A DNA stretch of 8,117 nt from a virus (lineage: Monodnaviria; Loebvirae; Hofneiviricota; Faserviricetes; Tubulavirales): the IMG/VR virus record IMGVR_UViG_2703718788_000001. The stretch is one strand, 5' to 3'. The translations under genes and the position numbers were made by a program. The notes under the pieces were generated by a model. The model was not told the origin of the DNA. It did not search any database and saw only the letters and a list, made by a program, of their open reading frames with translations. Below are positions 1-32 of this stretch, piece by piece (within the stretch, counting starts at the first letter, position 1; every line of letters begins with the position of its first letter).

Positions 1-32
1 TGCGCATAATGTGACACGCGTTATGTTGAAAA
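1..32. other. dif-like XerC/XerD recombination site (att): XerC-arm-like TGCGCATAA + TGT, then a XerD-arm-like TTATGTTGAAA at 21-31 after an 11-nt spacer
   Basis: 1-12 TGCGCATAATGT matches, from memory, positions 3-14 of E. coli dif (GGTGCGCATAATGTATATTATGTTAAAT); 21-31 TTATGTTGAAA resembles the dif XerD arm TTATGTTAAAT (9/11); the same 12-mer recurs at the right end. Confidence 0.6.

Follow-up and report, generated by a model that had tools for sequence, protein, structure and literature searches.

A filamentous prophage of Escherichia coli with a likely CTXφ-type folded attachment site for Xer recombination at dif

Introduction

The closest described counterpart of the locus considered here is the attachment site of CTXφ. 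In the El Tor phage, attP1 is composed of AGTGCGTATTA TGTGGCGCGGCA TTATGTTGAGG, with a 12-nt spacer between its arms, and attP2 is composed of AATGCGTATTA TACGCCA TTATGTTACGG, with a spacer of 7 nt (PMC3089051). The two sites are inverted relative to each other and lie ∼90 nt apart, and the (+) single-stranded DNA of the phage folds to unite them into a functional attP(+) (PMC3089051). This folded attP was studied by Val et al. and by Das et al., whose work is cited in PMC3089051 and PMC4246890. Neither half-site is a suitable Xer substrate in duplex form, and catalysis by XerC alone is needed (PMC4246890). Homology beside the XerC arm sets the specificity of the reaction, and integration cannot be reversed, as duplex DNA no longer has the fold (PMC4246890). 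The product of integration includes one new functional dif along with non-functional dif-like sites (PMC3089051).

Two other phages, YpfΦ and CUS-1Φ, have been listed as related CTXφ-type integrators of single-stranded DNA (PMC4246890). YpfΦ carries inverted XerC/XerD sites, has an intact dif at its 3′ end, and forms tandem repeats, and its new copies are reported to insert preferentially between resident copies (PMC4266046). A different arrangement is found in VGJφ- and TLCφ-type phages, whose attP is a single double-stranded site of 28-29 bp with a near-normal center and whose integration is reversible (PMC4246890). In the case of TLCφ, XerD-first exchange involves the activator XafT (PMC4246890).

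Genomic context

The stretch of DNA analyzed here (the window) is 8117 nt long and is one unit of a dif-integrated filamentous (inovirus) prophage of E. coli. The longest prefix of the window that equals a suffix is a 12-nt sequence, TGCGCATAATGT, found at 1-12 and again at 8106-8117, and the unit length is 8105 nt. All large ORFs of the phage body (572-8040) are on the plus strand. They comprise rep (572-2593), whose 673-aa product is of the Phage_GPA type (Pfam), an ORF of 141 aa with no function assigned (2624-3049), a major coat candidate (3383-3625), a gene for a coat-A-like adsorption protein (3685-5121; Phage_Coat_A in Pfam), and genes whose products were recognized by Pfam as a Zot-type assembly ATPase (5490-6701) and a secretin (6811-8040). 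A small divergent ORF of 60 aa (296-478, minus strand) is positioned as rstR is in CTXφ and is presumed to encode a regulator; it has no Pfam match. Between this ORF and the start of rep, three copies of a TGTTAAC(A/C)nTTTAACA-like motif (repeat family D8) occupy positions 493-568. These TGTTAAC-type repeats look like operators and presumably act as such.

A Pfam scan of nine ORFs returned the Rep, coat, Zot, and secretin families only, which provides no integrase, and no recombination activator was found among the same nine. Likewise, no toxin cargo was seen in the window phage. When the whole window was compared with phage records by megablast, no match was obtained, and at the protein level only distant relatives of Rep were recovered, at no more than ∼33% identity, including those of fs2 and VFJ as well as RstA of CTXφ. 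The window phage is present in IMG/VR (L109, ∼99% identical) and, as an unannotated prophage, in RefSeq E. coli genomes. Within the adsorption protein gene, at positions 4218-4703, a 27-nt sequence is repeated in tandem about 12-13 times and encodes a GGSSGGSTS-type linker. The copy number of this repeat varies among near-identical relatives, and the resulting units measure 8105 nt (window), 8254-8255 nt (L004), and 8294 nt (L109).

The attP1-like half-site

A first-pass annotation of this DNA had described a XerC arm followed by 11 nt and then by a XerD-like arm at 21-31, and the sequence agrees with that description. At the left end of the window, the XerC arm (TGCGCATAA, 1-9, plus strand) is cut by the window start. 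The full phage-borne XerC arm, AGTGCGCATAA, lies at 8104-8114 (plus strand), and joined to 10-31 it forms the top strand of an attP1-like half-site. The 11-nt top-strand spacer, TGTGACACGCG (10-20, plus strand), begins with TGT (10-12), which equals the first three bases of the dif center TGTATA. Next comes the XerD-like arm, TTATGTTGAAA (21-31, plus strand), in which 9 of 11 positions are identical to the E. coli XerD arm TTATGTTAAAT. The bases on the XerC side match the host dif center (TGT vs TGTATA), whereas those on the XerD side do not (CGT vs TAT). By analogy with dif and CTXφ, cleavage by XerC would fall between positions 9 and 10.

Types such as TLCφ and VGJφ are common among dif-integrating filamentous phages (PMC4246890), and the window phage might accordingly be supposed to be a double-stranded IMEX of this kind, with a single dif-like attP, a normal center, XerD-first (TLCφ) or XerC-first (VGJφ) exchange, and the ability to excise. 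This explanation can hardly be right. Canonical 6-bp spacing would put ACGCGTTATGT at the XerD position, which matches at only 5 of 11 positions (hand count), and none of the other XerC-like arms listed for the window has a XerD-like arm (two mismatches or fewer) within a few bases. Moreover, none of the Pfam matches of the nine ORFs is a recombination activator, and the left junction of integrated relatives lacks canonical spacing. Assignment to the VGJφ type was rejected because a single dif-like attP of ∼29 bp with a near-canonical center was not found, the XerD position at 6-bp spacing being the 5/11 match just given. Assignment to the TLCφ type, whose attP lacks a XerD arm but has center homology on the XerD side, was rejected because no such homology is seen and there is no XafT-like Pfam match in the nine ORFs.

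An inverted partner site and a predicted hairpin

A second dif-like site, in inverted orientation, lies 34 nt beyond the first. It is read from 92 to 66 on the minus strand as AGTGCGCACAA TGACG TTATGTGTAAA. The first-pass annotation missed this partner, and its presence changes the interpretation of the locus. The XerC-like arm of this attP2-like half, AGTGCGCACAA (82-92, minus strand), is complementary to 8104-8114 (equivalent to 1-9) apart from one T-G wobble. The XerD-like arm, TTATGTGTAAA (66-76, minus strand), forms pairs with 21-31 that include a G28-T68 wobble and leave C70 bulged. Between these arms is the 5-nt bottom spacer TGACG (77-81, minus strand), which on its XerD side is without homology to the dif center (CGT vs TAT). 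Neither half-site offers a usable 6-bp center, because the spacers are 11 nt (attP1-like) and 5 nt (attP2-like). An inner G+C-rich stem-loop (32-65, plus strand) separates the two halves, with a stem formed by 32-42 and 54-64, a loop at 43-53, and then a T run.

The ends of the window were joined into the circular junction and the plus strand was folded as DNA. The predicted structure, a hairpin of 94 nt, has a free energy of -36.9 to -37.1 kcal/mol, compared with -9.7 ± 2.5 kcal/mol for 300 mononucleotide shuffles. In this prediction, positions 1-11 pair with 90-80, six nucleotides (TGACAC, 12-17) bulge, and 18-42 are paired to 79-54 around the bulged C70. The pairs contributed by the top spacer are those of 10-11 with 81-80 and of 18-20 with 79-77. 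Each XerC arm is thereby paired with a XerC arm and each XerD arm with a XerD arm, and the 11-nt spacer faces the 5-nt spacer. According to the predicted fold, the XerC and XerD arms would form this duplex only in the folded single strand, where the inner stem-loop would hold both half-sites together.

To the eye, the inner stem-loop could also be a two-way transcription terminator. A scan of positions 1-620 for terminators and promoters called nothing, although its loop limit was 8 nt and the loop here has 11 nt. A scan of the same interval against Rfam gave only sub-threshold chance matches (E ≥ 0.4), and thus the hairpin is not a known RNA family.

Junctions in integrated relatives

Prophages related to the window phage that carry the att module are located, in complete E. 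coli genomes, directly downstream from hipBA, which is the dif locus, in at least two tandem copies. The left junction consists of host flank, a XerC arm, and then TGT GACACGCG TTATGTTGAAA, with the 11-nt spacer. The inter-copy junction has the same form and the same 11-nt spacer but is preceded by phage flank. In contrast, the right junction (L002, L004) reads phage flank and then GTGCGCATAA TGTATA TTATGTTAAAT, which is a perfect dif. Lysogens L001-L004 have at least two copies, a canonical dif at the right, and 11-nt sites at the left and between copies. At the left junction, the arm departs from that of the phage upstream of the 12-nt block, which also holds the expected XerC cleavage position, and divergence sets in again after TGT. 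Strand exchange therefore maps within TGCGCATAATGT, the direct repeat (1-12 and 8106-8117, plus strand) that represents identity between phage attP1 and host dif. After integration, the phage arm AGTGCGCATAA is the XerC arm of the rebuilt right-end dif. In strains 2015C-4136CT1 and 377323_2f, the host XerC arm at the left junction is GATGCGCATAA rather than GGTGCGCATAA (L004 position 1745, L001 position 6000), and the rebuilt right-end dif has the phage-type arm AGTGCGCATAA.

The junctions also bear on whether the long spacing belongs to attP itself. The circular junction equals the inter-copy junction of the tandem lysogens L001, L003, and L004, and there the spacing remains 11 nt rather than the canonical 6 bp, in line with the first-pass annotation. 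That annotation proposed that the XerC arm, 11 bp, and TTATGTTGAAA constitute attP as a duplex, and that a degenerate or displaced XerD arm restricts the reaction to XerC and makes integration irreversible. The 11-nt spacing is indeed genuine and persists at the reconstructed junction, and the predicted outcome fits the CTXφ-type class. However, a duplex attP leaves the conserved inverted partner and the strong hairpin unexplained, the duplex attP1 of CTXφ with its 12-bp center is reported to be an unsuitable Xer substrate (PMC4246890), and an active duplex would keep the left and inter-copy junctions recombinogenic. We regard the proposal as quite improbable. What survives of it is that the element is a Xer-integrating IMEX whose site is not a canonical dif, whereas the duplex attP with its degenerate or displaced XerD arm gives way to a two-part site that includes the inverted partner at 92-66. 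XerC-only, effectively irreversible integration is probably correct as an outcome, given the CTXφ-type class (PMC4246890, PMC3089051), but a displaced XerD arm does not fit as its cause.

We consider it highly probable that positions 10-32 are part of the attP1-like half of a CTXφ-type folded attachment site, and that integration proceeds through the folded (+) single-stranded DNA.

Conservation of the hairpin and its spacers

Base-pairing was counted in an alignment of 12 relatives. Among these, 94.7% of cells are paired, compared with 27%-55% once the partner columns are shifted. Three pairs show compensatory changes, one of which is 22:80, where the last spacer base pairs with the bottom spacer, and 27 of the 38 stem pairs are invariant, the inner-stem pairs among them. 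Because the hairpin is ∼90% conserved and most stem pairs never vary, covariation within the family is weak, and thus the structural case leans on comparison between families.

Sites in other families were found with the fixed pattern TGCGCATAATGT N{4,14} TTATGTT, which leaves the spacer free to range from 7 to 17 nt. In a genome scan restricted to one genome per species, the modal spacer is 11 nt (15 of 66 matches). The corresponding scan of viral contigs in IMG/VR gave 79 matches, almost all of which lie on contigs 7-12 kb long, and here too 11 nt is the mode, with spacers of 11 nt in 43, 10 nt in 23, and 13 nt in nine. A partner arm is present at 69 of these 79 sites. Genome matches from Enterobacterales (Yersinia, Lelliottia, Phytobacter, Enterobacter, Kluyvera, Erwinia) have an inverted partner ∼80 nt downstream, and roughly half of the genome-scan matches are without a convincing partner site. 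The partnerless matches, which include several Bacteroidota and Clostridia assemblies, were set aside as probable chance occurrences, for which the rough expectation is a few dozen.

Outside the enterobacteria, the stems of the hairpins are unrelated, yet the top spacer stays within 8-14 nt and the bottom spacer within 5-7 nt. Top and bottom spacers are 9/6, 11/6, and 13/7 nt in Aeromonas, 11/6 nt in Pseudomonas and in a Pseudoalteromonadaceae assembly, 14/6 nt in Pseudoteredinibacter, and 8/7 nt in a gammaproteobacterial assembly; the top spacer in Cellvibrio is 14 nt. Among 38 distinct hairpins of the enterobacterial type, the combination is 11/5 in 33, 10/5 in four, and 9/6 in one. The XerD-like arm TTATGTTGAAA is present in 33 of the 38. 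The bottom spacer is TGACG in 34 and has a length of 5 nt in 37. The CG at positions 10-11 of the top spacer never varies, and there is little constraint on positions 4-6 and 9 (1.5-1.8 bits). The initial TGT was imposed by the search pattern, but it is likewise present in all loci recovered by BLAST, a search that did not require it.

A few members of the same hairpin family depart from the usual lengths. The rare variants come from L074 (E. coli TUM13773), L050 (Rosenbergiella), and L042 (Erwinia sp. OLFS4). The 10/5 variants have TGTCAACGCG and TGTCGACGCA, and the 9/6 variant has TGTGTGGCG with TGCGCA as its bottom spacer. Relative to the 11/5 form, the latter is 2 nt shorter in its top spacer and 1 nt longer in its bottom spacer, for a total of 15 nt rather than 16 nt.

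These comparisons are relevant to the status of the XerD-like arms. Taken alone, the XerD-like 11-mer is not significant, as the window holds three matches (two mismatches or fewer) where 3.02 are expected. Together with the G+C-rich inner stem and the T runs that follow it on both strands, this chance frequency could suggest that the hairpin is mainly a two-way terminator or an origin of complementary-strand replication, that the XerD-like 11-mers are coincidental, and that only the XerC arm and TGT matter. We find such an explanation highly improbable, because XerD-like arms flank both sides of inner stems that are unrelated to one another and TTATGTTGAAA is nearly invariant, and a terminator role would in any case be compatible with an att role. 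The XerD-like arm is judged to be real because it adjoins the XerC arm, is conserved, recurs at the same spacing, and base-pairs with the inverted partner at 66-76.

Proposed route of integration

The layout, the predicted fold, the conservation (of spacer length and not of bulge sequence), and the lysogen junctions were observed in this study, and the remaining steps of the folded-site reading follow the CTXφ paradigm. The packaged strand would be the plus strand of the window, given that the genes share the strand that is the attP1-like top strand and given the analogy with Ff and CTXφ. The same kind of analogy suggests that the window phage is bound by XerC and XerD, that only XerC catalyzes exchange, with XerD needed for structure alone, and that integration is irreversible.

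On this basis, the attP1-like half (8104-8114 joined to 10-31) of the packaged (+) strand would anneal to the inverted attP2-like half (66-92). The stem of the resulting 94-nt hairpin would offer duplex XerC and XerD arms around an irregular center of 11 nt (top) and 5 nt (bottom). Host XerC and XerD would bind the folded site and bring it into synapsis with chromosomal dif. XerC would then cut after ...CATAA and exchange one pair of strands, and the TGT shared with the dif center would stabilize the product. Because homology is lacking on the XerD side (CGT vs TAT), XerD would be unable to complete the reaction, and replication would convert the pseudo-Holliday junction into an integrated prophage. 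On the left, this should leave the 11-nt hybrid site, which would be inert in duplex form, and on the right a functional dif that has been rebuilt. The rebuilt dif could accept further copies, which would account for the tandem arrays. Integration would be one-way because the duplex prophage cannot refold. The 11-nt spacing would thus render the double-stranded prophage copy inert, and irreversibility would arise from loss of the fold and not from weak binding by XerD. This simple model does not predict the preference of YpfΦ for insertion between resident copies.

Modularity and implications

Two contigs in IMG/VR, L116 and L148, match the window over the 93-nt hairpin (96%-98% identity) and nowhere else at E < 1e-20. 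Because these phages have the hairpin alone in common with the window, it appears to move between otherwise unrelated filamentous phages. The reverse situation is seen in L077 (NZ_CP027550.1, near ybiB/dinG) and L078 (NZ_CM128602.1, near yoaA/yoaB), whose bodies are ∼97% and ∼90% identical to 596-8050. Both are without the att hairpin and the small minus-strand ORFs, and both are inserted away from dif. An IS110-family transposase gene lies directly upstream of rep in these elements, replacing 1-595, and a DUF2726 gene follows the secretin gene. This looks like a swap of integration modules on one phage backbone, in which the Xer hairpin is exchanged for a transposase.

It is tempting to suppose that the 6-nt top bulge is a “safety spacer”, constrained in length and free in sequence, that is under selection across enterobacterial IMEXs, and that the ∼93-nt hairpin is a portable integration cassette. 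We offer this only tentatively and think it somewhat unlikely. If it were true, the bulge sequence might also tune specificity for host and dif, or immunity between co-resident IMEXs.

For those who annotate prophage ends, the noncanonical spacing is best read as the signature of a folded single-strand Xer substrate and not as a degenerate duplex. In enterobacteria, such a site could be recognized by a XerC arm, TGT, six free bases, CG, TTATGTTGAAA, a stem-loop, and then an inverted site with a 5-nt spacer.

Comparison with known systems

The layout described here is already known, experimentally for CTXφ and by inference from sequence for CUS-1 and YpfΦ, and it entails no new mechanism. Our findings extend the CTXφ-type layout to another filamentous phage of E. 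coli, one with a GPA-type Rep and without a megablast match in the phage records searched. Phages of the VGJφ and TLCφ types also exploit XerC and XerD at dif and are likewise filamentous, but their single double-stranded site, near-normal center, and (in TLCφ) XafT have no equivalent in the window phage.

CUS-1 and YpfΦ are similar in their attachment sites. In UTI89 (O18:K1:H7), the CUS-1 site reads GGTGCGCATAA TGTACGACTCG TTATGTTGAAA and then, as the reverse complement, GGTTCGCACAA TGACG TTATGCTAAAG, and a canonical dif is present at the right end of the CUS-1 copy. The hairpin at a Y. pestis locus (L027) is identical to that of UTI89. These sites share with the window the 11/5 layout, the host dif, and the inner stem GGCCGCTGCG, and the hairpins are ∼83% identical over window positions 1-91. 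They differ in the sequence of the bulge, and the arms of the window phage pair better, without a G-A mismatch at arm position 4, and the window hairpin has the additional bulged C70. The body of CUS-1 is unlike that of the window phage, as its Rep is of the II/X family (∼350 aa) rather than the 673-aa Phage_GPA type. Separately, a truncated CUS-1-like hairpin occurs on many large E. coli plasmids (∼484 plasmid places). Such hairpins, as in plasmid NZ_CP126615.1 (L006, ∼15.6 kb), lack the top XerC arm but keep an intact attP2-like half; they lie beside an STM4504/CBY_0614-family gene and an IS200 fragment and are apparently left-end remnants of a CUS-1-like element.

Compared with that of CTXφ, the hairpin of the window phage is compact, with a length of 94 nt (∼150 nt in CTXφ) and ∼34 nt between the XerD arms (∼90 nt in CTXφ). 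Its bottom spacer has 5 nt, whereas that of CTXφ El Tor has 7 nt, and therefore the geometry of the folded center is not identical to that of the El Tor phage. The arms of the window phage are tuned to E. coli dif, and its Rep shares only ∼30% identity with RstA across 72% of the Rep sequence. When CTXφ attP(+) (record GQ466611) was folded as a control, a 152-nt hairpin of -41.5 kcal/mol was predicted, with the same asymmetric internal loop beside the XerC arm. Both phages have two inverted dif-like sites, of which the attP1-like site has an oversized spacer (11 nt here, 12 nt in CTXφ) that starts with TGT and so matches the host dif center, and the attP2-like site has a short one (5 nt here, 5-7 nt in CTXφ). 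Their XerD arms begin with the same nine nucleotides, TTATGTTGA, as seen in TTATGTTGAAA and in TTATGTTGAGG of CTXφ attP1. In both, the site is followed by a small divergent ORF and rep, dif is regenerated at the right end, lysogens carry tandem arrays, and no phage integrase is evident.
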